From the NCBI GenBank assembly GCA_019749945.1, contig JAIEPF010000016.1, positions 13,596-77,595 of the forward strand: 64,000 nt of DNA. The letters run 5' to 3'. Position numbers and translations under genes: made by a program. The DNA is from Burkholderiales bacterium (GTDB taxonomy: Bacteria > Pseudomonadota > Gammaproteobacteria > Burkholderiales > SG8-41). The notes beneath the pieces are model-generated. The model was not told the DNA's origin. It ran no database searches and worked only from the letters and a program-made list of their open reading frames with translations. Below are positions 2,095-58,222 of the stretch, in pieces (within the stretch, counting starts at the first letter, position 1; each line of letters starts with the position of its first letter).

Positions 2095-2802
2095 GTGGGG
2101 CGCGCGCAGCCCCACGCCCACCACGGCATACAGATCTCTCTGTCGCTGGATGGACCCGCCGGAAAACTCCTGCTGCGCAGTGGCACAGATGGCGAGTGGC
2201 CTGCTTTCAGGGCGGCCATCGTCAGGCCCAACCGCCGGCATGCGTTCGACGGCCTGGGCGGTTCCGTCGCCCAACTCTTTGTCGAGCCCGAAACCGTGCG
2301 GGGCCGCAGCCTGCTCAAGCGCTATGCGGTGGAGGACATCACCGCATTGCCGCTGGAAATGATTGAACCCGCATTAAACCGGCTGGCGAAGCGGTATGCG
2401 AAGGGCGGTGACATTCAGGCGCTGGTCGCGATCAGCCAGGGCATTGTCGACACGCTGGCCGGTGCGGAGCGCGCGCAACCTTCCGCGAATCCGCGCATCG
2501 CGGCGGCGATCGAATTCATCTCGCAGCACATGACCTCAACCCTCACGCTGCAGCAGGTGGCGGCCGCGGTGCATCTGTCACCCAGCCGACTGCGGCACCT
2601 CTTCGTGCAGGAAACGGGGACCACCTATCGTGGCTATGTGCTGTGGCTGCGCATCAACCGTGCAGTGGTGGCCATGATGGATGGCCGCAGCTGGACCGAG
2701 GCGGCCCATGAAACCGGATTTGCCGATTCGGCGCATCTCAGCCGGACGTTTCGGCGGATGTTTGGCATTTCGCCGGCGATGTTGATCAAGGAGAAGCGGT
2801 AG
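2095..2802 (+). CDS. AraC family transcriptional regulator
   Basis: C-terminal double HTH region (LTLQQVAAAVHLSPSRLRHLF ... FADSAHLSRTFRRMFGISP). The start codon is uncertain. Confidence 0.8.
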   Translation: MGRAQPHAHHGIQISLSLDGPAGKLLLRSGTDGEWPAFRAAIVRPNRRHAFDGLGGSVAQLFVEPETVRGRSLLKRYAVEDITALPLEMIEPALNRLAKRYAKGGDIQALVAISQGIVDTLAGAERAQPSANPRIAAAIEFISQHMTSTLTLQQVAAAVHLSPSRLRHLFVQETGTTYRGYVLWLRINRAVVAMMDGRSWTEAAHETGFADSAHLSRTFRRMFGISPAMLIKEKR

Positions 2803-29205: not shown

Positions 29206-29351
29206 AACAGAGAACAACATAACCTGTTGTTATTAAAAGATATTTTATTCTATACCGTCGGACACCAGTTTTGCTTTCATCGGGGCTGGCGTGTATTGTC
29301 ATTTTCATGACGATCCGGACGCCGATCCGACGCCACCAGGGAGAGAGAACC

Positions 29352-30317
29352 ATGACGCATCATTTGCCGAAGCTGCTGTTTGCAGTTGCCGCAGTGGTTT
29401 CGTTGCAGGTCACGGCACAGGATTACCCGACACGCTCGATCCGGGTGGTGGTGCCGTTTCCGCCGGGCGGCGCCGGCGACACTCTGGCGCGGCTGATTGC
29501 GCCGCCGGTTTCAAAAGCGCTGGGCCAGAACATGGTGATCGAAAGCCGCACCGGCGCCAACACCGTGATCGCCACCGAGGTCGTGGCGCGCGCGCCGGCC
29601 GACGGCCATACCCTGCTGGTGATGGCGACGAGTTTCACGGTGAATCCGTTCGCCTATTCAAAACTGCCTTATGACACGCTGCGCGATTTTCACGGCGTGA
29701 CGCGGATGGTCTATAACCCGCTGATTTTCTGTACGCATCCGTCACTGCCGGTGAAAACCATGAAGGAACTTGTGGCGCTGGCGAAGGCGCGGCCCGGCGA
29801 GCTGACCTGGGCCGTGTCGAGCATCATCGGCGGCGGCCGCATTGCCGGGGAGCTGTTCAAGGAGATCGCGAAAATCGACATGATCAACGTGCCCTATGGC
29901 GGCGGCGCGCCGGCGGCGACCGCAGTCCTCGGCGGTCACACCAGCATGATCGTCGGCAATGTGCTCGAGTGCGTGCCGCACGTATTGTCGGGCAAGTTGC
30001 GCGGCATCGCGGTGACCTCGGCGCAACGCGCCGAGATTCTGCCGAACGTGCCGACCGTGGATGAATCGGGGTGGCCGGGTTTTGAGTCACTGAACTGGTT
30101 CGGCATCGTGGTCCGCGCCGGCACGCCGCGGCCGATCATCGAGCGCTTGTCAGGAGAAATCGGCAAGTCGCTGCAGACACCGGAGGCGCGCACGGTGCTG
30201 ATGAAGCAGGGTTTTACCGCAGGCACAATGACGCCCGCAGACTACGACGCCTACATCCGCAACGAGATGCAGCGCAACGAGAAAATCCTGAAAAAACTGA
30301 ACCTGAAGCTCGATTAG
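29352..30317 (+). CDS. Bug family substrate-binding protein
   Basis: Signal peptide, then QDYPTRSIRVVVPFPPGGAGD. Start chosen at the ATG after GGGAGAGAG. Confidence 0.85.
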   Translation: MTHHLPKLLFAVAAVVSLQVTAQDYPTRSIRVVVPFPPGGAGDTLARLIAPPVSKALGQNMVIESRTGANTVIATEVVARAPADGHTLLVMATSFTVNPFAYSKLPYDTLRDFHGVTRMVYNPLIFCTHPSLPVKTMKELVALAKARPGELTWAVSSIIGGGRIAGELFKEIAKIDMINVPYGGGAPAATAVLGGHTSMIVGNVLECVPHVLSGKLRGIAVTSAQRAEILPNVPTVDESGWPGFESLNWFGIVVRAGTPRPIIERLSGEIGKSLQTPEARTVLMKQGFTAGTMTPADYDAYIRNEMQRNEKILKKLNLKLD

Positions 30318-30380: not shown

Positions 30381-30956
30381 TCAGCGCATTTTTTCCAGCA
30401 CTTCGAGCAGTTCATCGTTGGGCATGATGCCGCGGGGATCTTCAACCTTGGCGTAGCGGATGACCCCCTCCCTGTCGATGATGAACCATGAGCGTTTCGC
30501 GCGCAGGTAGCCGGCGATGCGCTTGGCATCATTGGCCATTGCCGGATTGTCGTTGAGCACGCCGTAATCACGGGTCATTATCCGGCGCGTGTCACTCAGC
30601 AACGGGAACTTCAGGCCGAGTTTTTCGGCGAACACCGTATTGGCGGCGTTGAAATCGACACTGATGCCCAGAACCTGGGCATTGGCGGCCTCGAACTTGG
30701 GGAGATCAAGCTGGAAGGCCACGATTTCGGTCGTTCAGGTGTCGGTGAAGGCGCCGATATAGAAGAACAGCACCACGTTTTTCTTGCCGAGATAATCGGC
30801 AAGCGCCACCGGTTTGCCGGTGGATGAGATGACCGAAAAGGCGGGGGCCTTGTCGCCAACCTTCAGGGTCTGCGCCTGGGCAGTCCCGGCGAACAGCGCA
30901 GCGCTTCCCAGCAAACCCGCCGCGATCCAGCGTTGCAACAACGACATCCGGGACAT
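30381..30956 (-). CDS. Exported peroxiredoxin (AhpC/TSA-Bcp type) with an in-frame TGA at the peroxidatic position; candidate selenoprotein
   Basis: ORFs 30735-31058 and 30381-30722 are in the same frame and separated only by TGA (30735-30737). The readthrough gives VVLFFYIGAFTDT-U-TTEIVAF, matching the Prx motif FTxxCxxE. Signal peptide present; AGGAGG before ATG 30956. No other Cys after the signal peptide. Confidence 0.7.
30687..30720 (-). other. Candidate SECIS-like hairpin for the Prx-like gene (weak)
   Basis: Interrupted 12-bp hairpin GGCCUUccAGCUUG-AUCUCCC-CAAGUUcGAGGCC starting 14 nt after the UGA. The loop lacks G. A tighter hairpin AUGCCCAG-GUU-CUGGGCAU lies further downstream (~52 nt). 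Confidence 0.25.
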
Positions 30957-30981
30957 GGAGCACCTCCTGTGGTGGTGAAAA

Positions 30982-31512
30982 TCATTGTTTGGCGAGTTTG
31001 CGCGCGTAATTGCGCAGCACCTGGCCGTCAAAATCGACGTGGCCCAGGCCGCGCGCATTGATCATGCCCTTTTTGTCGACGATCACGGTGGACGGCACGC
31101 CGCGTACGCCGAAGCCGCGCGCAACATCCATGTTCTGATCAAGCAGTGCGGGCAGGGAATAGCCGCCCTTGGCGAACACCGGTTTGACCGCGGCCTCGCC
31201 GGTGCCGTCGATGGAAATGGTGATGACGTTGATGCCGTCTTTTTTCAGCTCGTCATGTGCCCTCTGCACGGAGGGCATTTCGCGGACGCAGCTACTTCAC
31301 CAGGAGGCCCAGAAGCGGATCACCGTGACCTTGTTGCGCAGGTCGGCATCGCTGCCGCTGGTGCCGTTGAGCCCCGGAAGCTTGAACACCGGCATGGGAA
31401 CCGGTGGTGAAACCGGCGCCAGCGTATCGCCGAGCGCAGGTTGTGCCAGTACGAAGCCGAACATGCAGCACGCGGCAATCAGGGATTTGAGGCTTGTCGT
31501 TGTCAGGGGCAT
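30982..31512 (-). CDS. TlpA/ResA-like thioredoxin-fold thiol:disulfide oxidoreductase with an in-frame TGA in a UxxC motif; candidate selenoprotein
   Basis: ORFs 31297-31545 and 30982-31278 are in the same frame and separated only by TGA (31297-31299). The readthrough gives VIRFWASW-U-SSCVREMP, matching FWAxWCxxCxxEMP. Hydrophobic N-terminal leader. Start is ATG 31512 (GGGAG upstream) or 31545. Confidence 0.7.
31258..31277 (-). other. Candidate bacterial SECIS hairpin for the TlpA-like gene
   Basis: The mRNA segment UGCCCUC-CGUGCA-GAGGGCA forms a 7-bp perfect stem with a G-containing 6-nt loop. It starts 19 nt downstream of the UGA. Confidence 0.4.
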
Positions 31513-31665
31513 GGGAACTCCCGTAATTAACAGCGTGGTTAACATCTGTCCCGGGGATTCTAATCCGAATGACGCCTTGGCGAAGGTTTACGATGCGGCC
31601 CGTTCGTTGGTTGTCATGGACAGGGCCCCGGCGGTCGCATGCGCGCGACGCCTGGGTAATCCAGA

Positions 31666-32628
31666 TTACTGCGGTTCGATGCCCGCAGCCTTGGCGATAT
31701 CAGCGAAACGTTTGACGTCAGCGCGGAACTGCTTGGCCCAGACTTCCGGCGGATCGCCGTTGGGCTCGTAGCCGTTGTCGATGAAGTGGGCATGGATCTT
31801 CGGCTCCTGCAGCGCCTTGTGGATGGCCTGCTGCAGTTTCCTGGCGACGGGCATCGGCATTTTGGCTGGACCGAACACGCCGTGCCAGCCGGCATCGGCC
31901 ACGTAACCGTTGACCGTTTCGCCGACGGTCGGGATTTCCGGCAGCGAGGCCAGACGCTTGGCGCCGGTGAAGGCGATGGCGCGGACGCGACCGGCCTTGT
32001 GTTGCGGCACACCGACCGAACCCGCGGGGAAATGCACCTGCACTTCACCGCCGGCAACGGCGGCGACGGCCGGGCCGCCGCCCTTGTAGGGCACATGCAG
32101 CATGTCGATTTTGGCCATGGTGTTGAGCAGCGCGCCCGCCAGATGCTGGCCGTTGCCGACCCCAGCGGTGCTGTAGCGCAAGGGCTGTTTTTTTGCGGCC
32201 TCAATAAGTTCGGCGGTGTTTTTGACCGGCAGCTTGGGATTGACGACGACCAGATAACCCAGGCCGGTGGCGACATTGGTGACCGGCAGGAAGTCGCGAA
32301 CCACATCAAACGGCATTTTTTTCATGATCGCCGGATTCACCGCAAAACCGAACGAAGTGTTCATGATGGTGTAACCGTCGGGGTTGGCATTCTTGACGGT
32401 GTCCGCGCCGACGATGCCGTTGGCGCCGCCACGGTTGTCGATGACGAAAGTCGCACCGAGTTCGGTTTCAACCTGTTTGAACAGCACGCGGGAGAACACG
32501 TCGACGTTGCCGCCGGCGGGGAAAGGCACGATCAGCCGGATCGGCCGGTTCGGGTATTGCTGGGCGATGCAATGGCCCGCCAGTGAGAGCGCAAGCAGGC
32601 CGAGCATAATGGAAATACTGCGCTGCAT
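31666..32628 (-). CDS. Bug family substrate-binding protein
   Basis: Signal peptide, then QQYPNRPIRLIVPFPAGGNVD. GGAGGAG before ATG 32628. Confidence 0.85.
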   Translation of the reverse strand: MQRSISIMLGLLALSLAGHCIAQQYPNRPIRLIVPFPAGGNVDVFSRVLFKQVETELGATFVIDNRGGANGIVGADTVKNANPDGYTIMNTSFGFAVNPAIMKKMPFDVVRDFLPVTNVATGLGYLVVVNPKLPVKNTAELIEAAKKQPLRYSTAGVGNGQHLAGALLNTMAKIDMLHVPYKGGGPAVAAVAGGEVQVHFPAGSVGVPQHKAGRVRAIAFTGAKRLASLPEIPTVGETVNGYVADAGWHGVFGPAKMPMPVARKLQQAIHKALQEPKIHAHFIDNGYEPNGDPPEVWAKQFRADVKRFADIAKAAGIEPQ

Positions 32629-32813
32629 GATGTCTCCTCCGATGTTTTTGAACATGGATGCCGGGTGCGCGGATTTTTGGCTGCGCTTCGTTTGCTGCGT
32701 CACCGACAGGTTCATTTTAGTGGTACCGGCGGTCATGCAGGAAATAAGTTGGGCCGGGCCGGAATCGGGTAATCTGCGCGGCAATCAATGATTGCAGGCA
32801 AAGGGAGTGGAAT

Positions 32814-33893: not shown

Positions 33894-34682
33894 ATGGCTG
33901 CAGACAGGATACTTGCCGGCAAGGAAGGCCCGATCGGCTTCCTGATTTTCAACAACCCCGAGCGCCGCAACGCGGTGTCGCTGGAAATGTGGCAGCGTGC
34001 CGGAGAGGTGCTCACGGAATTTGCCGGCGATGACGGCGTAAGGGTAATCGTGCTGACCGGCGCGGGCGACAAATCCTTCGTCTCCGGCGCGGACATTTCG
34101 AGATTTGAAAGTGAGCGCGCCAATGCGGAGGCGCAGGAAAAATACACCAAGACCTCCTCGGGCATGCGCAAAATACTGCGCGAGGTCGGCAAACCTACCA
34201 TCGCGATGATCCGCGGCTATTGCATCGGCGGCGGCATGTCGCTGGCCTTGAGCTGCGACATGCGCATCTGCTCCGACGACGCCCAGTTCGGCATCCCGGC
34301 GGCGCGCCTCGGCATCGGTTACGGCATCGAAGGCCTGGGCCGGCTGGTGGAACTGGTCGGCCCTTCGGCAGCCAAGGAATTCATCTACACGGCGCGCCGC
34401 TACAATGCCGACGAGGCGCTGCGCATGGGTATCGTCAATCGGGTGTTTCCGGCGCAGGCGCTGGGTGCCGCGGTGCGCGAAATGGCGAACGGCATGGCGG
34501 ACAACGCGCCGCTGTCGATCCTGACCGCAAAACGCGTGGTCGATGAACTGATGAAAGACCCAGCCAAGCGTAATGTCGCGTTGTGCGAACAGTTGGTCAA
34601 GGATTGTGGCGCGAGCGAAGATTTCATCGAAGGCCGCCGCGCGTTCATGGAAAAACGCAAACCGGTGTTCAAGGGGCGCTGA
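33894..34682 (+). CDS. Enoyl-CoA hydratase/isomerase family protein
   Basis: Crotonase motifs (FNNPERRNA, VLTGAGDKSFVSGADI, GYCIGGG). The start is uncertain (33825, 33849 or 33894). Confidence 0.8.
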   Translation: MAADRILAGKEGPIGFLIFNNPERRNAVSLEMWQRAGEVLTEFAGDDGVRVIVLTGAGDKSFVSGADISRFESERANAEAQEKYTKTSSGMRKILREVGKPTIAMIRGYCIGGGMSLALSCDMRICSDDAQFGIPAARLGIGYGIEGLGRLVELVGPSAAKEFIYTARRYNADEALRMGIVNRVFPAQALGAAVREMANGMADNAPLSILTAKRVVDELMKDPAKRNVALCEQLVKDCGASEDFIEGRRAFMEKRKPVFKGR

Positions 34683-34684
34683 TA

Positions 34685-35686
34685 ATGAAGCAACGCAATT
34701 CCGCGTGGTACCGATTCGGCAGGGTTACCGCCGCAGTGTTGTTTGCGGCATGGAGCGGCGCGTCCGTTGCGGCTGACGCAACCAGCGGTTATCCCAATCG
34801 CCCGGTGCGCTTCATCGTCGCCCAGGCTGCGGGCGGTAACGCCGACTTTGTCGCGCGCATGGTTGCTGCCGAGCTGGTAAAAAAACTGGGGCAGCAGTTC
34901 GTGGTTGACAATCGCTCCGGTGGCGGTGGTGGCGTGCTCGCTGCCGACATGGTGGCCAAGGCCAACCCGGATGGCTATACGATGCTGCTCGTCGGCAGTT
35001 CCTTTGGCGTCAATCCCAGCATCTACAAAAAACTGCCTTACGACTCGGAGCGTGATCTTGCACCGATTACGCTGGCGTCCACCGCATCGCAGATCCTGGT
35101 GGTCAACCCCTCCTTGCCGGTGAACACCGTGCAGGACCTGATCAAACTCGCCCAGGCCAGGCCTGGTGAACTGAATTTCGGTTCTTCGGGCAATGGCGGC
35201 GGCCCGCATCTGGCGGGGGAACTCTTTAACCTGATGGCGAAGACGAAGATGACCCACATTCCGTACAAGGGTGCTTCGGGTTCCATTCTTGATCTGCTGT
35301 CCGGACGGATCCAGGTGGTGTTCGCCACCATGCCTTCGGTGATGTCGCACATCCGGTCGAACAAACTGCGCGGTGTCGCGGTGACCAGTCTCGAACGCTC
35401 GGCGCTGGTGCCGGAGCTGCCGACGATTTCCGAGGCAGGGTTGAAGGGATTCCAGTCGGGCACCTGGCAGGGAATATTTGTGCCGCGCGGTACGCCCGAG
35501 CCGATCATCAAACTGCTCAACCGCGAAATCGTTGCTGTCGTGAAATTGCCAGAGGTGCGCAAACGTTTCGAGCTGGAGGGCGGTGTGCCGGTGGGCAATA
35601 CGCCGCATGAATTTGCCGTATGGCTGCACGCGGAAATCGCGAAATGGGCGAAAGTGGTCAAGGCGGCGAACATCACGCTGGAATAG
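34685..35686 (+). CDS. Bug family substrate-binding protein
   Basis: Signal peptide, then SGYPNRPVRFIVAQAAGGNAD. The ATG lies 2 nt after the upstream stop. Confidence 0.85.
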   Translation: MKQRNSAWYRFGRVTAAVLFAAWSGASVAADATSGYPNRPVRFIVAQAAGGNADFVARMVAAELVKKLGQQFVVDNRSGGGGGVLAADMVAKANPDGYTMLLVGSSFGVNPSIYKKLPYDSERDLAPITLASTASQILVVNPSLPVNTVQDLIKLAQARPGELNFGSSGNGGGPHLAGELFNLMAKTKMTHIPYKGASGSILDLLSGRIQVVFATMPSVMSHIRSNKLRGVAVTSLERSALVPELPTISEAGLKGFQSGTWQGIFVPRGTPEPIIKLLNREIVAVVKLPEVRKRFELEGGVPVGNTPHEFAVWLHAEIAKWAKVVKAANITLE

Positions 35687-42149: not shown

Positions 42150-44264
42150 ATGGCTGAAAATTCCATTCCCGAATCATCCCGGGAGGAGCCCTTGCTCAGT
42201 GAGGAGGCGCGCAAGCGCGTCGAAGAACTGATCGAGGAAGAAGAGGGTACCCACAACCGTTATACCGGCGTACTCGCGGTCTTGCTGACGCTGGCCGCGG
42301 TGATCATGTCGCTGTTTCACCTTTATGCCGCGGTGGAGATCGTGCCGGCATTCAGGTTGCGGCCCATCCACGTCGCTTTTGCGCTGACACTGGTATTTCT
42401 GCTGTTCCCGATCGCGAAACGTTTCCGTCATCGCCTGATGTGGTGGGATGTCATCTTCGCCGCCGCATCGCTGGCAATCATCGGCTACATACTGTACTGG
42501 GGGGACTTGCTGGGCGACCGGGCAACGGTTCCGACAACGCTCGACCAGGTGGTTGGTGTCGCGTTGATTCTGCTGATCCTCGAGGCCAACCGGCGGAGCT
42601 CGACGTGGATACTGCCGTTCATAGTCTCGCTGTTCCTGGCTTATGCGCTGTTTGGCCCGTCTCTGCCGGCGCCGTGGACGCACAAGGGTTACGAAATTGC
42701 GCGGCTGACCGGGGCCTTGTACATGACGCTGGAGGGTATCTTTGGCGTTGCTGTTGATGTCTCTTCCACGCTGATCATCCTGTTCACCATTTTCGGCGCC
42801 TTTCTGCAGTATTCAGGCGCCGGCAAGTTTTTCCTCGACTTCTCGTTTGCCGCGATGGGCGGCAAGCCGTCGAGTGCGGGTCGCGCGGTGGTGATGTCCT
42901 CGTTCCTGCTCGGCGGTCCTTCGGGTTCCGGCGTGGCGACCACGGTGACCATCGGCGCCGTGGCCTACCCGCTGCTGGCCAAGGCGGGTTATGGCAAGGA
43001 GGCCGCCGGCGGATTGCTGGCGGCGGGGGGGCTGGGCGCGATCCTGTCGCCGCCGGTGCTGGGCGCGGCGGCCTTCCTGATCGCCGAGTTTCTCCGGATT
43101 TCCTATCTCGACGTGATCCTGATGGCCACCATCCCGACCATCATGTTTTATCTCGGCATTTTCATCATGGTCGAGATTGATGCGCGCAAATTCAACATGA
43201 AGGCGGTCGCTCTCGAAAAGCACCACCGTCCTCTGGAACTGGCCAAGCGCTACTGGTACCACTTTGTATCGCTGGTATCGATTGTGGTTTTCCTGCTCGC
43301 CGGTTATTCGCCGGTGCTGTCGGTGTTTTATGCCACGCTCGTGACCGCGCTGGTTTCGTTTTTTCAGAGGGATTCAGCGCTCATCCCCTACGACTGGTTC
43401 CGCGGCCGCATGCCCTGGATCAGGGGGTTCTGGGAGTCGGGGTTCATCAAGGCGCTGGAGGGCGGCTCGGTGGGCGTGCTCAACGTGGCGATGACCTGCG
43501 CATCGGCGGGCATCATCGTCGGCGTGGTGACATTGACCGGCCTGGGGCTGAAGTTCAGTTCCATCGTGCTGGACTACGCCGATTCCGGTTCGAAAGGGCT
43601 GGTCAGCCTGTGGGTGATGTTCGGCGCGGCCGCAACACCCGAACTGCTGCATGACATGAAGCTGCTGCTGACGGCGCTCTTCACTTCGCTGATTGTGTGG
43701 GTGGTCGGTCTGGCGGTGCCGGTGACCGCGTCGTACATCATCTGTGCGGTGATCACCGCGCCGGCGATGATCAAGCTCGGGGTTCCGGATTTTGCCGCGC
43801 ACATGTTCATTTTCTATTACGCGGTGTTGTCCGAGGTGTCGCCGCCCACCGCGCTGTCGCCGTTTGCGGCGGCGGCGATTACCGGCGGCGGCCCATACCG
43901 CACGACGCTGCAGAGCTGGAAATACTGCGCACCGGCGTTTCTGCTGCCCTTCATGTTTGTGCTTGACCCGTCGGGTACCGGCTTGCTGCTTGGCGGTTCC
44001 TTCAAGAATCTGGCCGCTGCCAACTGGGGTTCCATCGCGTTGGTGGCCGGTACTGCAGCGGTGGGCATTGCCGCGCTGGCCGGCGGCTTGCAGGGCTGGC
44101 TGCTCTGCAAGACCACCGCGCTTGAACGCTGGATGCTGATCATCGCCGGTCTTGCGCTGGTGTACCCGACGACGTTTGCCGATATCCTGGGGATCGTGCT
44201 GGTGGTGATCGTGGTGGCATTGCAGAAACTGCGGCCGCCGGCGCAAACGACCGTCACGACATGA
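42150..44264 (+). CDS. TRAP transporter fused permease (TAXI type)
   Basis: 704 aa, highly hydrophobic multi-pass protein, immediately downstream of the TAXI receptor. Confidence 0.85.
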   Translation: MAENSIPESSREEPLLSEEARKRVEELIEEEEGTHNRYTGVLAVLLTLAAVIMSLFHLYAAVEIVPAFRLRPIHVAFALTLVFLLFPIAKRFRHRLMWWDVIFAAASLAIIGYILYWGDLLGDRATVPTTLDQVVGVALILLILEANRRSSTWILPFIVSLFLAYALFGPSLPAPWTHKGYEIARLTGALYMTLEGIFGVAVDVSSTLIILFTIFGAFLQYSGAGKFFLDFSFAAMGGKPSSAGRAVVMSSFLLGGPSGSGVATTVTIGAVAYPLLAKAGYGKEAAGGLLAAGGLGAILSPPVLGAAAFLIAEFLRISYLDVILMATIPTIMFYLGIFIMVEIDARKFNMKAVALEKHHRPLELAKRYWYHFVSLVSIVVFLLAGYSPVLSVFYATLVTALVSFFQRDSALIPYDWFRGRMPWIRGFWESGFIKALEGGSVGVLNVAMTCASAGIIVGVVTLTGLGLKFSSIVLDYADSGSKGLVSLWVMFGAAATPELLHDMKLLLTALFTSLIVWVVGLAVPVTASYIICAVITAPAMIKLGVPDFAAHMFIFYYAVLSEVSPPTALSPFAAAAITGGGPYRTTLQSWKYCAPAFLLPFMFVLDPSGTGLLLGGSFKNLAAANWGSIALVAGTAAVGIAALAGGLQGWLLCKTTALERWMLIIAGLALVYPTTFADILGIVLVVIVVALQKLRPPAQTTVTT

Positions 44265-46133: not shown

Positions 46134-46739
46134 TTGGCGTTACTAATCGTGGTGATTACGGCCTATCTGCTCGGCTCGGTTTCGTTTGCGGTGGTCGTCA
46201 GCCGCGCGTTCCGGCTGCCGGATCCGCGGGCATACGGATCGGGCAATCCGGGTGCGACCAATGTGCTGCGCAGCGGGCGCAAGTCGGCGGCGGTGCTGAC
46301 CTTGCTCGGCGATTGCGTCAAGGGCTGGCTTGCGGTGTTTGCCGCCGGGCAGTGGGTTGTCGACGGCACTGCAATGGCGATGGCGCTTGCGGCGGTGGCG
46401 GTCATTCTCGGCCATCTGTATCCGGTGTTCCATGATTTCAAGGGCGGCAAGGGTGTCGCGACGGCGCTGGGCGCCCTGCTTGCGCTGAGTCCCTATCTGG
46501 GACTGGGCGTGCTGCTCACCTGGATCATCATTGCGGTGTTTTTCCGCTACTCTTCGCTCGCGGCATTGATTTCCGCGCTGTTTGCGGTGTTTTTCACCTT
46601 GATCCTGTTCAACCCCGCGCATCCGTTTTTGTTTGCGGTGATCGTGATCGCAGCGCTGCTGATCTGGCGCCATCGCTCGAACATCCGTAACTTGCTGGAT
46701 GGCAAAGAAGGCAAAATCGGCGCGAAAGCCGACAGTTAA
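46134..46739 (+). CDS. plsY: Glycerol-3-phosphate acyltransferase PlsY
   Basis: [14 protein letters not shown]...[12 protein letters not shown] motif. TTG start after AGGGGAAA; the ORF track's ATG at 46074 is probably too early. Confidence 0.85.
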
Positions 46740-47764
46740 CCAGCGGCGAGGTTTGCCAGATCCCAGCGCGGGCGCACGGTAAACCCGGAACCGCCACCCT
46801 GCGTGTTTTCCTGCTTATCCTGCTGCAAACGCAGCGCGCCGGCAAACGCGATCATCGCGCCGTTGTCGGTGCAGAACTCGAACGGCGGATAAAACACCGC
46901 GCAGCCATGGCGTTGCGCACCCGCACTCAGTTGCGCGCGCAAGCGGTGATTGGCGCCGACACCACCCGCAACCACCAGCCGTGTCAGTCCGGTCTGTGCC
47001 ATGGCCGCGAGGGCTTTGCCGGCCAGCACATCAACGATGGCCGCCTGCAGTTCGGCGGCGAGGTCGGCGCGGGCCTGTGCCTCCGGCGGCAGATTGCGCA
47101 CGGCGGTGAGCACTGCGGTTTTGAGGCCGCTGAAACTGAAATCGAGGTTGTTACTGTGCAGCATCGGCCGCGGCAACGGGTATTTTCCGGCATGTCCTGA
47201 TTCAGCGAGTGCTGCGATCGCCGGACCGCCGGGGTAGCCCAGGCCCAGCAGTTTTGCCGATTTGTCGAAGGCTTCACCGGCGGCGTCGTCCAGGGTCTCG
47301 CCGAGCAGGGTGTAGTCGCCGACACCGCCGACCCGCATCAGCTGGGTGTGGCCGCCCGAGACCAGCAGCGCGACAAACGGGAACTGCGGCGCCGGATCGG
47401 CCAGCAGCGGCGACAACAGGTGGCCTTCGAGGTGGTGGATACCGATTGCGGGGATATCCAGAGCGTAGGCGAGGCTGGTGCCGACCCCGGCGCCGACCAG
47501 CAGCGCGCCGGCCAGTCCGGGGCCGGCGGTGTAAGCCACGGCGTCGAGCTCGGCCAGTGTGGCGTTAGCCTCGCGCAGCACCTCCCGGGTCAGCGGCAGC
47601 ACCCGGCGAATATGGTCGCGGGAGGCCAGCTCCGGCACCACCCCGCCATAATCGGTGTGCAGCGCCACCTGGGAGTGCAGGGCATGGGCGCGCAGGCCCC
47701 GCCCGCTGTCATACAGGGCGATGCCGGTTTCGTCGCAGGAGGTTTCGATGCCTAATACAAGCAC
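46736..47764 (-). CDS. tsaD: tRNA N6-adenosine threonylcarbamoyltransferase TsaD
   Basis: [20 protein letters not shown]-terminus, with GTG start inferred at 47764. About 342 aa. The 457-aa ORF extension is not TsaD-like. Confidence 0.85.
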
Positions 47765-47839
47765 GGGATTCTGGCCGGGGGTAGAAAAGGGGGCAAACCG
47801 GAGGCATTCCGGGCTCTGTAACTCCGGGCCGGATGTGGT

Positions 47840-47845
47840 TATAAT
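47840..47845 (+). promoter_or_regulatory. Candidate -10 box (TATAAT) for rpsU
   Basis: Perfect TATAAT in the GC-rich tsaD-rpsU divergent region, 75 nt upstream of the rpsU ATG. The -35 is weak. Confidence 0.3.
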
Positions 47846-47920
47846 ACGCGCCTTTCCGATTCCGGCCGACTGCATGTTCGGGTACGGCAGGTAGTGTCGG
47901 ATACGACAGACGAGGGTTTG

Positions 47921-48133
47921 ATGACGACAGTACGTGTAAAGGAAAACGAGCCGTTCGAGGTGGCCCTGCGCCGCTTCAAGCGCACCGTGGAAAAAACCGG
48001 GCTGCTGACCGAACTGCGTGCCCGCGAGTTCTACGAAAAACCGACTTCCGAGCGCAAGCGCAAGCTGGCCGCCGCGGTGAAGCGCACGCACAAACGCCTG
48101 CGCTCGCAACTGCTGCCGCCGAAGCTCTACTAA
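47921..48133 (+). CDS. rpsU: 30S ribosomal protein S21
   Basis: 70 aa; [42 protein letters not shown] is a near-canonical S21. Confidence 0.9.
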
Positions 48134-48163
48134 GAAGCGTCCGGCGCGCCGTTCAGGCCGTCA

Positions 48164-48200
48164 AAGGGTGCAGGGGCCAAGCCTCGCACCCTTTTGTCAT
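48164..48200 (+). terminator. Possible partial terminator after rpsU
   Basis: 8-bp stem AAGGGTGC/GCACCCTT with a 14-nt loop, followed by TTGTCATTT. Confidence 0.35.
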
Positions 48201-48217
48201 TTCTGGAGTCCAGTCCC

Positions 48218-48667
48218 ATGTCTTTGCGTGAACAGATCAACGATGACTTGAAGGCGGCGATGCGCGGCGGTGAGGTTGCGCGCCGCGACACCATCCGGCT
48301 GCTGCTCGCCGCGCTGAAACAGCGTGAAGTCGACGAACGCAAGGTGCTGACCGATGCCGACGTGCTGGGCATCATCGAAAAAATGCTCAAGCAGCGCCGC
48401 GATTCGATCAGCCAGTTTGAAAAGGGTGGCCGCCAGGATCTGGCCGACAAGGAAAAGCAGGAACTCGTGCTGTTGCAGGCGTACATGCCGCAGGCGCTGA
48501 GTGATGCGGAAATCACCGCAGCCGTTGCGGCGGCGGTGACCGAGACGGCTGCTGCTGCGCCGTCCGATATGGGCAAGGTGATGGCGGTGCTGAAGCCGAA
48601 GCTGGCCGGGCGCGCCGATATGACCAAAGTGTCCGCTGCCGTCAAAGCGCAACTGACGAAATCATAA
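48218..48667 (+). CDS. GatB/YqeY domain-containing protein
   Basis: 149 aa. The segments LREQINDDLKAAMRGGE, LLLAALKQREVDE and MGKVMAVLKPKLAGRADM are typical of YqeY. Confidence 0.85.
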   Translation: MSLREQINDDLKAAMRGGEVARRDTIRLLLAALKQREVDERKVLTDADVLGIIEKMLKQRRDSISQFEKGGRQDLADKEKQELVLLQAYMPQALSDAEITAAVAAAVTETAAAAPSDMGKVMAVLKPKLAGRADMTKVSAAVKAQLTKS

Positions 48668-48825
48668 TCCCTTTATACCCCGTTGTTTTTGCGGCTGTTT
48701 TTGCGGGGGTGCCACGATTCCGCCCTGATGCAGCGTGCCGCTCCGCACTGCCTGCCCATATAATTCCCTGATAACCACGGCCCGCCACCGGGTCGCCGGT
48801 TCCGAGTGGAGCATTTGCCGCGCGC

Positions 48826-50586
48826 ATGATTCCGCAGTCGTTCATCCAGGATTTGCTCGGCCGGGTCGACATCGTCGAAGTGGTCGATCGCCACGTGAAA
48901 CTGAAGCGCAGCGGCGCCAATTATTCGGCGTGCTGCCCGTTCCACACCGAAAAATCCCCGTCATTCACCGTCAGTCCGACCAAGCAGTTCTATCACTGCT
49001 TCGGCTGCGGCGCGCACGGCACCGCCATCGGCTTCATGATGGAGTACAGCGGCATGGGGTTTGTCGATGCGGTGAAGGATCTCGCGCAAAGCGTCGGCAT
49101 GCAGGTGCCGGAAGAAGCGCGTTCCGAATACACCCAGCGCCGCACCGAAGAGGGCCCTGATCTGTACGGCGTGTTGCTGCAGGCGGCGCAGTTCTACCGC
49201 AACCAGTTGAAGGATGCGCCGCGGGCCATCGAATACCTGAAGAAGCGCGGCCTTTCGGGTGAAATCGCGAAGCGCTTTGGCATCGGTTACGCCCCGGACG
49301 GCTGGCAGAACCTGGAGCAGGTGTTCCCCGACTACGCGGACAAGGCGCTCAATGCCGCCGGCCTGGTCAAGCAGAACGAGGAAGGTCGGCGTTATGACGT
49401 GTTCCGCGACCGCATCATGTTTCCGATCGTCGATGTACGCGGCAACATCATCGGTTTCGGCGGCCGCGTGCTTGGTGATGGTGAACCCAAATACCTGAAT
49501 TCCCCGGAAACCCCGGTGTTCGAAAAAGGCCGCGAACTCTACGGCCTGTTTCACGCACGGCGCGCGATCCGCGACGCCGGATGCGTGATCGTGGTTGAAG
49601 GCTACATGGATGTGGTGGCGCTGGCGCAGGCGGGTGTCGAGTACGCGGTGGCGACACTGGGTACGGCGACCACGCCGAACCATGTGCAAAAACTGCTGCG
49701 CCAGTCGGACGAGATCGTGTTTTGTTTCGATGGGGATGCCGCCGGCCGCCGCGCGGCGTGGCGCGCGCTGGAGAACAGCCTCACGCAACTGGTGGACGGC
49801 AAACAGCTGCGTTTCCTGTTCCTGCCCGACGGCGAGGATCCCGATACCTATGTGCGAACGAACGGCAAAGCCGCGTTCGAAGCTTTGCTCGCCAAGGCGG
49901 AGCCGCTGTCGCGATTTTTGCTCGATGAGCTGCGCGCGAATGTTGACATTCATACTTCCGAAGGCCGCGCCAGGCTGATGCAGCAGGCGAAACCGCTGGT
50001 GAAGCAGATTGCCGCGCCGATGCTGTCGCTGCTGATCCGCAAGGAACTGGCGCAACTGGCCGGCGTGTCGCAGCAGGAACTCGACGCAAATTTCGAAATC
50101 CGGGCGCAGGGCACGCCGGCGCCGGCGCGGCGGGCAGCGCCGGCGACGCAGTCGATTTTACGCACGGTGCTCGAATTGCTGATCGTGGAGCCGCGGTTTG
50201 CAGCGCTGATCAGGCGCGATGATCTGGCCGCGGCGGTCGGTGTCGCGGGCGTGGATCAGGCGGATCTGCAGGCCCTGGATGCGGTGCTGGAGGCGACGGG
50301 CGGCGGGGAGGCCGTGATCAATCTGGGTGAATTGTTTCGCGGTTCGCCGCATGAGGCCGCGGTCCGTCAGGCCGAGGCCGGGGCCCTGCGCTGGCAGGAC
50401 CGGACGCTGGAGCCGGGGGAATTCGAGGCCGAGTTCCGCGGCGCCTGGGAGCAGGCTATGGTCTTGATTCGTAAGGCCAGAATCAATGCACTGTTGGAAA
50501 AATCCAAGCGACAGGGCTGGAATTCCGAGGAGCAGGCCCAATATCGTCTTTTGCAACAAGCACTTAGCATGCCAGCCGGCAAGTGA
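48826..50586 (+). CDS. dnaG: DNA primase
   Basis: Zinc-ribbon segment CCPFHTEKSPSFTVSPTKQFYHCFGCGAHG, the TOPRIM segment VVEGYMDVV, and 586 aa length. Confidence 0.9.
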   Translation: MIPQSFIQDLLGRVDIVEVVDRHVKLKRSGANYSACCPFHTEKSPSFTVSPTKQFYHCFGCGAHGTAIGFMMEYSGMGFVDAVKDLAQSVGMQVPEEARSEYTQRRTEEGPDLYGVLLQAAQFYRNQLKDAPRAIEYLKKRGLSGEIAKRFGIGYAPDGWQNLEQVFPDYADKALNAAGLVKQNEEGRRYDVFRDRIMFPIVDVRGNIIGFGGRVLGDGEPKYLNSPETPVFEKGRELYGLFHARRAIRDAGCVIVVEGYMDVVALAQAGVEYAVATLGTATTPNHVQKLLRQSDEIVFCFDGDAAGRRAAWRALENSLTQLVDGKQLRFLFLPDGEDPDTYVRTNGKAAFEALLAKAEPLSRFLLDELRANVDIHTSEGRARLMQQAKPLVKQIAAPMLSLLIRKELAQLAGVSQQELDANFEIRAQGTPAPARRAAPATQSILRTVLELLIVEPRFAALIRRDDLAAAVGVAGVDQADLQALDAVLEATGGGEAVINLGELFRGSPHEAAVRQAEAGALRWQDRTLEPGEFEAEFRGAWEQAMVLIRKARINALLEKSKRQGWNSEEQAQYRLLQQALSMPAGK

Positions 50587-50654
50587 AGGCGCTGGTGGTT
50601 TGCGGTATAATTTGCGGCTTTTTCACCGAACCATCGCCCGGCGGAGCCTAACCC

Positions 50655-52991
<2,337 letters not shown>

Positions 52992-53060
52992 GCAACGCGG
53001 GTTGAGCAACCGGGGCCGGAACCGGCGGCCCGCTTGCACACCGGGCGAATTCCGGAATGC

Positions 53061-53137
<77 letters not shown>

Positions 53138-55092: not shown

Positions 55093-56064
55093 ATGCCGCA
55101 CGTCATACGCATACATCAGAACGGTGGTCCGGAGCAGATGCGCTGGGAGGAAATCACTGTCGGTGATCCCGGCCCCGGTGAAGTCCGCGTCCGCAACACC
55201 GCGATCGGGCTCAATTACATCGATACCTATCATCGTTCCGGCCTCTATCCGATGCCCTTGCCGCTGGTGCTGGGCTCCGAGGGCGCGGGCGTGGTCGAAG
55301 CGGTCGGGCCGAAGGTCAGGGAGTTCAAGGTCGGTGACCGCGTCGCCTACGCGCAGCCGATCGGGGCTTATGCCGAAGTGCTGATCCGTCCGGTGGCGCG
55401 GCTGGTGAAAATTCCCGCCGGCATCAAGGATGAAACGGCGGCGGCGATGATGCTGAAGGGCATGACCGCCTGGTATCTGTGCCGGCGCACTTACCGCGTG
55501 AAAAAGGGCGACACCATCGTTGTCCATGCCGCGGCGGGCGGCGTCGGCCAGATCCTCTGCCAGTGGGCGAAACACCTGGGCGCCACCGTGATCGGCACCG
55601 TCGGCAGCGACGAAAAAGTCGCGCTCGCCAAAAAAGCCGGCTGCAAACATGTGGTGGTGATGTCGCGTGAAAAACTGTCCGAACGCGTCAAGGCGATCAC
55701 CAAGGGTCGCGGCGTGCCGGTGGTGTACGACGGCATCGGCAAGGACACCTTCGTCGAATCGCTGGACTGCCTGGCGCCGCTGGGTCTGATGGCGAGTTTC
55801 GGCAACGCTTCGGGTGCCGTGGCGCCGGTCAACATCGGCATACTCGCGCAGAAGGGTTCGCTGTTCCTGACGCGGCCGACGCTGGGCAATTACACGGCGA
55901 CGCGCGAAGACCTGCTCGCCGCAACCCGCGAGCTGTTTGCCGTGGTCAAAAAGGGCGCGGTGAAGATCACCATCAACCAGCGTTATCCGCTGCGCGAAGC
56001 GGCGCAGGCGCATCGCGATCTTGAGGCGCGCAAGACCACCGGTTCCACGGTGCTGCTGCCCTAG
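55093..56064 (+). CDS. NADPH:quinone oxidoreductase (zinc-type ADH superfamily)
   Basis: 323 aa with GLNYIDTYHRSGLYP and the AAGGVG nucleotide-binding motif. Confidence 0.85.
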   Translation: MPHVIRIHQNGGPEQMRWEEITVGDPGPGEVRVRNTAIGLNYIDTYHRSGLYPMPLPLVLGSEGAGVVEAVGPKVREFKVGDRVAYAQPIGAYAEVLIRPVARLVKIPAGIKDETAAAMMLKGMTAWYLCRRTYRVKKGDTIVVHAAAGGVGQILCQWAKHLGATVIGTVGSDEKVALAKKAGCKHVVVMSREKLSERVKAITKGRGVPVVYDGIGKDTFVESLDCLAPLGLMASFGNASGAVAPVNIGILAQKGSLFLTRPTLGNYTATREDLLAATRELFAVVKKGAVKITINQRYPLREAAQAHRDLEARKTTGSTVLLP

Positions 56065-56119
56065 GTCCTCTCAACAGGCCCGAATCCCCTTCACACGGGC
56101 GCAGCGGTATGATGGCCGC

Positions 56120-58222
56120 ATGCTTGAACATGCGCCCGCCCCAGCCCAAAACGCAATCGCCGCGGCGCCCGCGGCTGACAGTGATGCTGTCAACCGGCTG
56201 GCGCTGCGGCTGATTGCCGCCAATGCGCGGGTTAATGCCATCGCGCTGGTGGTGGCATTCAGCCTGATTGCGCTCGGCGCCTGGGCTTACTCCGGCATTG
56301 AGCAGTCGCTGCGCGACCTGCGTGCGGCGGGACTTGCCGCGGTGCTCGATGCCGAAGTGCAGGCCCTGGGTTTGTGGATAGAAGACCGCAAAGACGAAGT
56401 CCGGCATTGGGCCGCCGATCCGCGCATCCGTGCCGCCACCGTGGCGCTGTCCACCCGCGCCGCGCCGGAAAAGGCCCGCGCCAATCTCGCGGCGGCGCTG
56501 GCACCGGCACTCAAGGAATCGGGTGCCGCGGCCTACAACGTCATCGACCGGCAGGGTGTGGTCATGGCCTCATCGGCGACCGAGTATTTCGGCCGCCGCA
56601 TCAGTCCCGGCGAGTATCTGGCGGCCGTGCGTGATGTGCTCGGCGGATCCACGCGTTTTGTCCGTCCCTATCGCGAACGTGATCGCATCGAGGGTGAACC
56701 CAGTGCGGTATTTGCGCGGCCGATGGTCTGGTTCAAGAGCCCGGTTTTTGATGCGAATGGCGAAGCCGTTGCCGGCCTCGGTTTTGCGCGTTATGCCGAC
56801 AGCCGGTTCACCGGAATACTCGGTGCGGCGAGCCCGGGCGTCACCGGCGAGATTTATGCGCTGACCGCGGATGGCCTGATGTTGTCGGACAGCCGTTACG
56901 CGACTGAACTGCGCGCGGCCGGCGCCTTGCCGCCAGCCGCCGGCAACGGCGCGCTGCAGGTGCAGATCCGCGATCCCGGCGGGGCGTTTGCCAAAGGCCA
57001 CAAGCTGCCGGCCGACTGGGCGGCTGCGCCGCTGACGCGGCTGGCGGCGCTGGCCGGGGCGGCCCGCGGCAAAACGGATCCGGCGGAACAGCGCGGGGTG
57101 ATCCTGGAACCCTATCGCAATTATCGCGGCAGCGAAGTGATCGGCGCCTGGCGCTGGCTCGCCGATTACGACTTTGCGGTGGCCGTCGAAATGTCGCGCG
57201 ACGAGGCTTACGCGCCGCTGCGTTATCTCAATTTCGCCTTTGGCCTGCTCGGCGCCCTGGTCGGCCTCGCGGTCCTCGCGGTGCTGGGCTCGATGTGGAA
57301 TGTGCGCCGGCTGCGTCTGGCCGCGGGCGACGCCCGCGTTATCGGCCAGTACCAGCTGGAGCGGCAGCTCGGCGAAGGTGCGATGGGTACGGTTTATCTC
57401 GCGCGGCATGCCCTGCTCAAACGGCCGACCGCGATCAAACTGCTGAAACCCCATCTGGCCACCGACGAGATGATCGGACGGTTCGAGCGCGAGGCGCGCC
57501 TGGCCAGCCAGCTGGTACATCCGAACACGATCAGCATTTACGACTACGGACGCACGCCGGAAGGCGTTTTTTATTATGTGATGGAGTATCTGGAAGGACA
57601 GTCTCTTGACGAGATCGTGCTTGCCTGGGGACCGCTGCCGGTGGCGCGGGTGATCCACGTCTTGCGCCAGACCTGCGCTGCGCTGCGCGAGGCGCATGGC
57701 CGCGGCCTGATTCATCGCGATATCAAGCCGCATAACCTGATGCTGTGCCAGCGTGGCGGCGAATTTGATGTGGTCAAGATACTCGATTTCGGCCTGGTCA
57801 AGGATCTGACAACGCCGCAATCGCGCAACATCACCCAGTTTCAGCGCGTCGTCGGCACCCCGGTGTACATGGCGCCGGAACGCGTGCGCAACCCAGCCGA
57901 CGCGGATAACCGCTCCGACATCTATGCGGTCGGCGCGACGGCATTTCACCTGCTGACCGGCCGGCCGCCGTACGAAGCTGCCGGAGAACATGACCTCACT
58001 TACCAGATCCTGCATGCGCCAGTGCCGGCAATCGGCGATTTCGCGCCGCAGCTGCCGCCGCGCCTCGGCGAACTGATCACGCGCTGCCTGGCCAAGGAAC
58101 GCGGCGAACGCCCGCACGACATCGTGGTCATACTGGCGGCGCTGGAGGCGCTGGCCATCGTACATCCGTGGACGCAACGCGAAGCTGCTGCATGGTGGGC
58201 CGGGATCCGTGCGGCGTCGTGA
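56120..58222 (+). CDS. Receptor-type Hanks Ser/Thr protein kinase with an N-terminal periplasmic Cache-like sensor
   Basis: TM1, then ~290-aa extracytoplasmic region, then TM2, then the kinase domain: GEGAMGTVY, AIK, HRDIKPHN, DFG, GTPVYMAPE. Confidence 0.85.
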   Translation: MLEHAPAPAQNAIAAAPAADSDAVNRLALRLIAANARVNAIALVVAFSLIALGAWAYSGIEQSLRDLRAAGLAAVLDAEVQALGLWIEDRKDEVRHWAADPRIRAATVALSTRAAPEKARANLAAALAPALKESGAAAYNVIDRQGVVMASSATEYFGRRISPGEYLAAVRDVLGGSTRFVRPYRERDRIEGEPSAVFARPMVWFKSPVFDANGEAVAGLGFARYADSRFTGILGAASPGVTGEIYALTADGLMLSDSRYATELRAAGALPPAAGNGALQVQIRDPGGAFAKGHKLPADWAAAPLTRLAALAGAARGKTDPAEQRGVILEPYRNYRGSEVIGAWRWLADYDFAVAVEMSRDEAYAPLRYLNFAFGLLGALVGLAVLAVLGSMWNVRRLRLAAGDARVIGQYQLERQLGEGAMGTVYLARHALLKRPTAIKLLKPHLATDEMIGRFEREARLASQLVHPNTISIYDYGRTPEGVFYYVMEYLEGQSLDEIVLAWGPLPVARVIHVLRQTCAALREAHGRGLIHRDIKPHNLMLCQRGGEFDVVKILDFGLVKDLTTPQSRNITQFQRVVGTPVYMAPERVRNPADADNRSDIYAVGATAFHLLTGRPPYEAAGEHDLTYQILHAPVPAIGDFAPQLPPRLGELITRCLAKERGERPHDIVVILAALEALAIVHPWTQREAAAWWAGIRAAS

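Follow-up and report, generated by a model that had tools for sequence, protein, structure and literature searches.

An operon-like pair of conserved selenoprotein genes from an uncultured Burkholderiales bacterium as a candidate system for periplasmic peroxide reduction

Two adjacent genes in a 64-kb stretch of DNA from a Burkholderiales bacterium (assembly GCA_019749945.1, contig JAIEPF010000016.1, positions 13,596 to 77,595; 64,000 nucleotides (nt), hereafter the window) appear to form a bicistronic operon for two selenoproteins that would be exported through the Sec pathway and would jointly reduce peroxides in the periplasm. We put the probability of this reading at roughly 0.6. The upstream gene, A, encodes a thioredoxin-fold protein with a UxxC active site (U, selenocysteine), and the downstream gene, B, a peroxiredoxin (Prx) without cysteine that carries selenocysteine at the peroxidatic position. 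Gene structure, recoding signals for selenocysteine (Sec), export signals, fold and family, and the conservation of the pair were established from the window and from related loci. An initial annotation of this DNA had described two co-oriented genes 25 nt apart, each with its own Shine-Dalgarno sequence; all of this is present, on the minus strand, and the 25-nt spacer separates the stop of A from the start of B. The elements of the pair are as follows.

30982..31512, minus strand: gene A, 176 amino acids (aa), a predicted exported TlpA/ResA-like thioredoxin-fold selenoprotein with the active site W-U-S-S-C, from the translation
31545, minus strand: ATG, alternative upstream start of gene A and the earliest ATG in its open frame
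30984-30982, minus strand: TGA, stop of gene A
31299..31297, minus strand: TGA, Sec codon of gene A at the first position of UxxC, context F-W-A-S-W-U-S-S-C
31518..31522, minus strand: GGGAG, Shine-Dalgarno sequence of gene A, 5 nt upstream of ATG 31512; GGAG is conserved ahead of the aligned ATG
31557..31562, minus strand: TAGAAT, a conserved -10-like box, putative promoter of the A-B operon
30381..30956, minus strand: gene B, 191 aa, a predicted exported, Cys-free one-Sec peroxiredoxin (AhpE/BCP-like) with the active site F-T-D-T-U-T-T-E
30956, minus strand: ATG, start of gene B
30383-30381, minus strand: TGA, stop of gene B
30737..30735, minus strand: TGA, Sec codon of gene B at the peroxidatic position of TxxU, context G-A-F-T-D-T-U-T-T-E
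30963..30968, minus strand: AGGAGG, Shine-Dalgarno sequence of gene B, 6 nt upstream of ATG 30956 and inside the 25-nt A-B spacer

The start of gene A had first been placed at ATG 31545. This start is possible, but ATG 31512 is the likelier one: GGGAG precedes it by 5 nt, the orthologues start at the aligned position, and the TAGAAT box is suitably placed, 44 nt upstream of ATG 31512 and just 11 nt before ATG 31545. When the two frames were read through their internal TGA codons, the Pfam matches to AhpC-TSA/Redoxin continued without interruption across both (2.8e-21 for A and 4.7e-33 for B).

To compare the TGA codons across species, a scan with one genome per species was used, which gave 164 relatives of B. 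The best 80 were kept as loci with up to ±10 kb each, and 73 of these include DNA upstream of B. At the DNA level, TGA occupies the Sec column of B in 80/80 species-level loci and that of A in 72/72 loci, there within the motif FWxxW-TGA-xxC; such agreement goes far past what chance would give. No further in-frame stop occurs within 60 codons downstream of either TGA in the orthologous loci. Before as well as after each TGA, divergence peaks at third codon positions: for B, 0.49 compared with 0.29 and 0.23 at first and second positions before the TGA, and 0.42 compared with 0.16 and 0.17 after it; for A, 0.37 compared with 0.22 and 0.13 before, and 0.49 compared with 0.33 and 0.26 after. Judged by these substitution patterns, either side of each TGA evolves as coding sequence under purifying selection. 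Both genes in the window end in TGA, and the orthologues end in TAA, TAG or TGA; in these genomes TGA is thus an ordinary stop and not a Trp codon. Cys stands at the U column of B in the rare relatives P0048, P0064, P0074 and P0115. At the U column of A it is found in P0210 and in locus L085 (WCSIC), where a Cys/Cys version of the whole pair is encoded at 1976-2527 and 2681-3247.

Database entries reflect the internal TGA codons. Approximately 90 of the 120 best matches to B are proteins of 112-114 aa, 79-94% identical, that start right after the TGA, and nearly all matches to A are fragments of 96-105 aa starting at the Met after UxxC. Gene calls from the Joint Genome Institute (P0001-P0010 and others) are full-length with Trp at the Sec column, which corresponds to TGA read with genetic code 4, while NCBI, ENA and Logan calls break each gene into fragments, so that the family is systematically mis-annotated. 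Such mis-annotation, as two fragments each or with Trp at Sec, hides these genes from routine annotation.

Downstream of each TGA the transcript can fold into a hairpin resembling a selenocysteine insertion sequence (SECIS).

31258..31277, minus strand: SECIS-like hairpin of A, stem UGCCCUC/GAGGGCA, loop CGUGCA, UGA-to-loop distance 26 nt, -12.3 kcal/mol
30687..30720, minus strand: SECIS-like hairpin of B, bipartite stem of 6 + 6 bp, UGA-to-loop distance 27-28 nt, -13.4 kcal/mol

The model of bacterial SECIS elements (bSECIS) describes an apical loop of 3-9 nt, an upper stem of 4-16 bp, a G within the first two loop positions, a UGA-to-loop distance of 16-37 nt and a minimum free energy of at most -7.5 kcal/mol (PMC13188914). 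The hairpin of A agrees with this model, having a 6-nt loop with G at position 2 followed by U, a 7-bp stem, a spacing of 26 nt and two covarying pairs. Across 72 distinct sequences, 98.6% of the cells in its stem are paired. One pair changes from C-G to U-A in 14 sequences and another from U-A to G-C in two; in the latter, a Ser-to-Ala exchange (UCC to GCC) is offset by the synonymous change of AGG to CGG. The loop CGUGCA is invariant (72/72), including one locus with a G+C content of 39%. For the hairpin of B, 95.5% of the cells are paired and three pairs are altered on both sides; its stem, its spacing of 27-28 nt, its energy and the covariation of the three pairs are in line with the bSECIS model, to which its loop conforms only loosely.

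In the Cys-type gene A' of locus L085, the sequence at the SECIS position can still form a hairpin (GGACG...CGUCC, its loop containing GUGCA), and that of B' is weakened. The hairpin in L085 may be a fossil SECIS from a recent Sec-to-Cys conversion. Use of the Cys forms as a hairpin-free control was rejected for this reason, A' still having its hairpin and B' a weakened one.

Taken together, the conserved TGA codons, the Cys residues at the same columns in homologues, the coding conservation and the SECIS-like hairpins with compensatory changes make it almost certain that both genes encode genuine selenoproteins. The initial annotation, which had proposed two selenoprotein genes, is thereby borne out by the comparative data. 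Decoding of Sec is known in Betaproteobacteria (PMC1794560).

Protein A matches AhpC-TSA best among Pfam families (2.8e-21), followed by Redoxin (4.3e-19) and Thioredoxin_8, and these domains span the TGA. Its nearest solved relatives are a thioredoxin-family protein of Geobacter (3kcm, 8.8e-25), ResA, StoA, DsbE/CcmG and TlpA. WCxxC and the G-V-P of the cis-Pro loop fall within its alignment to 3kcm and ResA; the motif GxRG[VL]P, searched as a strict regular expression, was found in 39/67 orthologues of A. Compared with NCBIfam models, A reached 52 bits for TlpA (cutoff 230), 74.5 for ResA (170), 51.9 for DsbE (123) and 72 for the WAxxUGC family NF041054 (300). As these scores are far below every equivalog cutoff, A is best regarded as a separate subfamily of TlpA-like redoxins: by these profile comparisons it belongs to the TlpA/ResA/DsbE superfamily, but is not orthologous to one of the named proteins. 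In 67/67 orthologues, the C of UxxC is the single Cys of mature A.

Protein B matches AhpC-TSA with 4.7e-33 and 114.2 bits (cutoff 26). Its nearest solved relatives are the archaeal Bcp-type proteins 2ywn (1.9e-24), 3hjp and Bcp4, and the 1-Cys peroxiredoxin AhpE of Mycobacterium tuberculosis. An AlphaFold2 model of the Sec-type orthologue P0001 (mean predicted local distance difference test score, pLDDT, 78.5) compared with Bcp4 and AhpE gave target-normalised template modelling (TM) scores of 0.86-0.91. B in the window contains no Cys at all, and mature B is without Cys in 72/73 orthologues. Among the 73 Sec-type orthologues, Thr(-3) and Glu(+3) are each conserved in 72; the Arg of RxxFxxD is kept by the window protein (KRSWFIID) and by most orthologues. 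With 54.8 bits compared with a cutoff of 270, B is not a member of NF040737, the Sec-peroxiredoxin equivalog of PrxU. Pfam matches, motifs and Cys counts therefore agree with the earlier description of a Cys-free 1-Sec peroxiredoxin next to a UxxC thioredoxin-fold protein.

The four Cys-type relatives of B named above lack the Arg of RxxFxxD, but have an invariant Arg three residues earlier. Two database proteins related to the pair are chimeras: in P0240 (122 aa) the C-terminal portion of A is fused, at a shared 'VDF', to the middle of B, and P0117 (164 aa) combines the N-terminus of a cytoplasmic-type Prx with the C-terminus of a Sec-type B. Both are probably deletions or assembly artefacts.

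Export signals were read from the sequence of both proteins.

31429..31512, minus strand: signal peptide of A, MPLTTTSLKSLIAACCMFGFVLAQPALG, followed by DTL
30873..30956, minus strand: signal peptide of B, MSRMSLLQRWIAAGLLGSAALFAGTAQA, followed by QTLKV

Inspected by eye, both proteins have basic, hydrophobic N-termini of the AxA type in the window and in nearly every orthologue, and that of A is hydrophobic with an AxA or AxG site in the window as well as in the orthologues. In the AlphaFold2 model of P0001, residues 1-25, which form the signal peptide, are disordered. Both proteins are hence very likely exported, as the export-type leaders noted at the outset had implied. A lipoprotein reading of A was rejected, the L-I-A-A-C of the window not being conserved in orthologues, and a twin-arginine translocation (Tat) signal was rejected as well, the twin-arginine motif being absent.

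The two genes travel together. In 72/73 loci with upstream DNA, the A motif FWxxW-TGA-xxC is found 513-635 nt ahead of B and on its strand; at the loci for which both starts could be assigned, A and B are separated by -1 to 110 nt. The intact pair is kept in more than 70 uncultured bacterial species, from Burkholderiales to genomes labelled Entotheonella or Tectomicrobia. Taxonomic labels of the metagenome-assembled genomes (MAGs) are partly unreliable, some records being labelled Streptomyces or Chitinophaga; chromosome-scale Entotheonella assemblies show, however, that the module crosses phylum boundaries. All-versus-all clustering of open reading frames (ORFs) in the 80 loci gave no third conserved neighbour besides A and B. 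A metagenome scan seeded with a Cys-type B returned three close relatives only, all three of them Sec forms. From this conservation of gene order, A and B are judged to form a conserved two-gene module, and the tandem pair had rightly been proposed as a unit.

In about 26 of 31 close loci, a motif TA[GCA]AAT, to which the TAGAAT box belongs, occurs in the interval that separates A from the preceding TctC gene, approximately 35-60 nt upstream of the A start. Its conservation ahead of A suggests that the A-B module has a dedicated promoter. A scan with generic consensus sequences found no promoter or terminator above threshold in the region and no full sigma-70 match. A second conserved element, GTCCAyGACAA, is located at approximately 31609-31619 on the minus strand, about 50 nt upstream of the TAGAAT box and right after a GC-rich inverted repeat that trails the TctC gene; it may act as an operator or belong to a terminator.

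Considering the conservation of the pair, we regard it as probable that A and B are functionally coupled. The features described above are the basis on which we propose a localisation, a substrate, a direction of electron flow, a Se-Se intermediate, an upstream reductant and peroxidase activity. SelB would insert both Sec residues at UGA, guided by the coding-region SECIS hairpins approximately 26-28 nt downstream. In the periplasm, the selenolate of B (B-Se(-)) would attack H2O2 or an organic hydroperoxide and be converted to the selenenic acid B-SeOH. As B has no Cys and no internal resolving residue, it needs an external resolving partner. The N-terminal active-site position is the nucleophile in thioredoxin-fold reductases. 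The Sec of A is the obvious candidate, since A is the sole redox partner that always travels with B and its only Cys is the resolving one; the donor-acceptor logic of the initial annotation thus appears sound. The exposed N-terminal Sec of A might attack B-SeOH to give an intermolecular A-Se-Se-B, and the single Cys of A would then resolve the Se-Se bond, yielding reduced B and an intramolecular selenenylsulfide in A. Finally, A would be re-reduced by a membrane transporter of the DsbD/ScsB/CcdA type encoded elsewhere, with electrons coming ultimately from cytoplasmic thioredoxin. On these grounds we lean towards a direct recycling of the peroxide-reducing B by A. We know of no Se-Se catalytic intermediate in any peroxiredoxin system. 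That the relay is an obligate Sec/Sec relay of the envelope, with B recycled via a diselenide with its dedicated UxxC partner, is a tentative extension of this scheme. Held just as tentatively is the idea that selenium was selected in both partners since the periplasm cannot repair over-oxidised Cys.

Several observations weigh against a peroxide-reducing selenoprotein pair. Pro(-7) of the PxxxTxxC motif, called absolutely conserved in the Prx motif PxxxTxxC/U (PMC3322552, PMC13188914), is found in 0/73 Sec-type orthologues of B (I in 60, V in 10, F in two and T in one), whereas the Cys-type relatives P0048, P0064, P0074 and P0115 all have it. The loop of the B hairpin (AUCUYCC) is a loose fit to the bSECIS model, as it offers a G within its first two positions only when the closing G-C pair is taken as open. 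Neither sel genes nor tRNA-Sec turned up in the window or, for the pair elsewhere, within 10 kb: ARAGORN and Rfam detected tRNA-Met only and no tRNA-Sec in the 64-kb window, Pfam searches with its ten largest ORFs gave no SelA, SelB, SelD, FdhA, DsbD or CcdA, and 50 related loci had no tRNA genes, a negative that carries little information at a coverage of ±10 kb per locus. Likewise, neither dsbD nor ccdA nor scsB was detected in the window or, at the other loci examined, in the ±10 kb around the pair. Two loci have B without A. In L074 (9689-10570), from a Nitrospinota-labelled MAG, B has its TGA, signal peptide and SECIS hairpin, and no A lies within approximately 1.3 kb upstream; this is the sole A-less case among the 73 loci with upstream DNA. 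In L086, a Cys-type B is preceded by a MerR regulator and not by A, so that the evidence on pairing of the Cys form consists of this locus and the Cys/Cys pair of L085. All carrier genomes are uncultured MAGs. In addition, a pprX deletion in Caulobacter, where the corresponding Cys pathway is known, has no peroxide phenotype (PMC3322552), which makes the physiological role of even the Cys pathway uncertain.

The main rival explanation accepts a coupled exported pair, but with a substrate other than peroxide, B being a diverged reductase with a Prx fold and no peroxidase. Candidate substrates would be protein sulfenic acids, methionine sulfoxide repair, damage by hypohalous acids or peroxynitrite, or metals and metalloids such as copper or selenite/tellurite. 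This explanation rests on the missing Pro of PxxxTxxC, which B never has, and on a few copper-related neighbours: three distant loci have, respectively, a Cu P-type ATPase, a multicopper oxidase and a MerR regulator next to the pair or to a Cys form of it. TlpA-family proteins act in the maturation of Cu proteins and in Scs copper tolerance, and PrxL, an ScsB-dependent Prx-like protein, is without detectable peroxidase activity (PMC3322552). However, B keeps the catalytic Thr, Sec at the position of the peroxidatic Cys, Glu(+3) and the Arg, its sequence and fold are closest to the true peroxidases AhpE and Bcp, and each copper-related neighbour occurs at a single locus, none being conserved. 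We therefore consider a non-peroxide substrate unlikely, at odds of about one in five.

Less likely still, A and B might be independent exported redox selenoproteins that share an operon just for co-regulation, for example by selenium supply or envelope stress. B would then be recycled by the gamma domain of DsbD or by small thiols, and A would serve the maturation of cytochrome c or Cu centres. DsbD has a thioredoxin-like domain that is indeed able to reduce PprX directly, and in Caulobacter tlpA is not encoded beside pprX (CC2210 and CC1673, respectively; PMC3322552); the A-less loci L074 (Sec-type B) and L086 (Cys-type B) point in the same direction. Independence makes it hard, however, to account for an adjacency of 72/73 across very divergent genomes with no other conserved neighbour, and it fits poorly with the complementary active sites, B lacking a resolving residue and A having one Sec and one Cys. 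A last explanation, by which the TGA codons are plain stops of pseudogenes or split genes that yield N-terminal or re-initiated C-terminal fragments, can draw on the 113-aa and 98-aa fragments annotated by gene callers and on the lack of Sec machinery in the window and the ±10 kb loci, but is effectively refuted by the comparative data, namely TGA exactly at the catalytic column in every locus (80/80 for B, 72/72 for A), purifying selection on both sides with no other stop, compensatory hairpins with one invariant loop, and the fact that fragments would part the signal peptide from the fold.

The surroundings of the pair differ between lineages. In 35/68 loci, nearly all of them from Burkholderiales, a TctC gene of the same orientation is located upstream of A. 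TctC/Bug was considered as a gene of the module and rejected as lineage-specific synteny, being absent in distant lineages. In distant loci (labelled Entotheonella, Tectomicrobia, Planctomycetota and Nitrospinota) the neighbours are mutually unrelated and include a CoA-transferase, DUF547, a luciferase-like monooxygenase, a Cu-ATPase and a multicopper oxidase. The copper-related genes and the regulator mentioned above are a Cu P-type ATPase with HMA domains directly downstream of the pair (L053:2591-4621), a multicopper oxidase directly upstream of it (L069:8121-9257) and a MerR-family regulator upstream of the A-less Cys-type B (L086:108-482). In the window, the following neighbours were assigned.

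29271-30317 (plus strand), 31666-32784 (minus strand) and 34583-35686 (plus strand): TctC/Bug-family periplasmic binding-protein genes flanking the pair, assigned by synteny with the Pfam-annotated locus L081
28006-29205, plus strand: DUF3095 protein, 399 aa, Pfam 3.1e-119, two genes downstream of the pair
42150-44264, plus strand: ORF of 704 aa with a single Pfam match, DctM (TRAP transporter)
46736-53137: housekeeping cluster of tsaD, dnaG, rpoD and tRNA-Met
56021-58222, plus strand: protein of 733 aa with a C-terminal Ser/Thr kinase domain

The housekeeping cluster indicates that the DNA of the window is chromosomal.

If the proposed function in periplasmic peroxide reduction is correct, the pair would be a selenium-based equivalent of the one pathway for periplasmic peroxide reduction that has been characterised. 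It would further imply that selenoproteins can pass through the Sec translocon and be serviced by a reducing pathway of the DsbD type, and it would enlarge the selenoproteome of Betaproteobacteria, by a widespread second class besides FdhA, and that of Entotheonella. The pair poses the question why both partners carry selenium, and could serve as a natural test case for the choice between Sec and Cys: both residues are Sec in 72/72 loci, the Cys relatives regain the Pro, and one pair is Cys/Cys.

The closest known system is the envelope pathway of Caulobacter crescentus, in which peroxide reduction by electron transfer from ScsB to TlpA to PprX was demonstrated experimentally (Cho et al., 2012, mBio; PMC3322552). 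E. coli DsbD can replace ScsB in this pathway, and PprX homologues in Bordetella and Burkholderia are expected to use DsbD (PMC3322552). In that pathway, as in the scheme proposed here, an exported TlpA-family reductant feeds an exported Prx of the BCP/PrxQ type, and a donor of the DsbD family is expected; this likeness of A and B to the Caulobacter TlpA and PprX is taken from the published description of the pathway. In contrast to the pair described here, the Caulobacter pathway is all-Cys, and PprX, a 2-Cys Prx, brings its own resolving Cys and has the canonical Pro-Thr-Cys-Arg set. Moreover, tlpA and pprX are not adjacent in Caulobacter, whereas here the genes form an apparently obligate operon, both sites are Sec and the Prx is without Cys or Pro. 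The initial annotation had called the relay uncharacterised, which holds for the selenium version; the Cys version was characterised in 2012 (PMC3322552).

The individual proteins have relatives with one or other of these properties. PrxU of Eubacterium acidaminophilum (NF040737) resembles B in belonging to PF00578 and in having Sec at the peroxidatic site within TxxU, but it is a cytoplasmic protein of an anaerobe with the motif PxxxTxxU, whereas B is predicted to be exported, is Pro-less and occurs in genomes of the Burkholderiales and Entotheonella type. AhpE and the archaeal Bcp4/ST peroxiredoxin-like protein provide the closest structures (1e-17 to 1e-24 by sequence, TM scores as given above), and AhpE, like B, has no resolving Cys and relies on an external reductant. 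These proteins differ from B in being cytoplasmic and Cys-based and in keeping Pro(-7), and the reductant of AhpE, reportedly mycoredoxin/mycothiol, is no operon-encoded thioredoxin-fold partner. Protein A shares with NF041054 (ResA-like WAxxUGC) and with TlpA, ResA and DsbE the properties of an exported thioredoxin-fold redoxin with a site of the W-x-x-(C/U)-x-x-C type, but differs from all of them in scores far below their cutoffs.

Selenoproteome surveys list the two kinds of protein separately, 'Prx' (PF00578, TxxU) as an experimentally verified selenoprotein family and 'Prx-like 1' or 'Prx-like thiol:disulfide oxidoreductase' (PF00578, UxxC) as a widespread predicted one, in agreement with the earlier remark that Prx-like and thioredoxin-like selenoproteins had been listed. 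A fits 'Prx-like 1' by the definition of the surveys, PF00578 as best hit together with UxxC, and not by comparison with the type sequence WP_010940744.1. The surveys treat 'Prx-like 1' as a stand-alone protein of unknown function and describe no pairing with a Sec-containing Prx and no export signal. The selenoprotein operons that have been reviewed are grdAB, prdBC, frh/hdr, Prx/SelW, Prx-like/AhpD-like, SAO and Tso; the Global Ocean Sampling study contains one Prx/Prx-like 2 read, Prx-like 2 being a different family. In a survey of 2006, FdhA was the sole selenoprotein in Sec-decoding Alpha- and Betaproteobacteria (PMC1794560). In the literature consulted, we found no description of a Prx-like-1/Prx operon, of its export signals, of a Cys-free, Pro-less Prx or of its spread among Burkholderiales and Entotheonella. 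The best reading of this comparison is that the individual genes belong to known families, while the operon-encoded Sec/Sec form of the TlpA-to-peroxiredoxin envelope pathway would be new.

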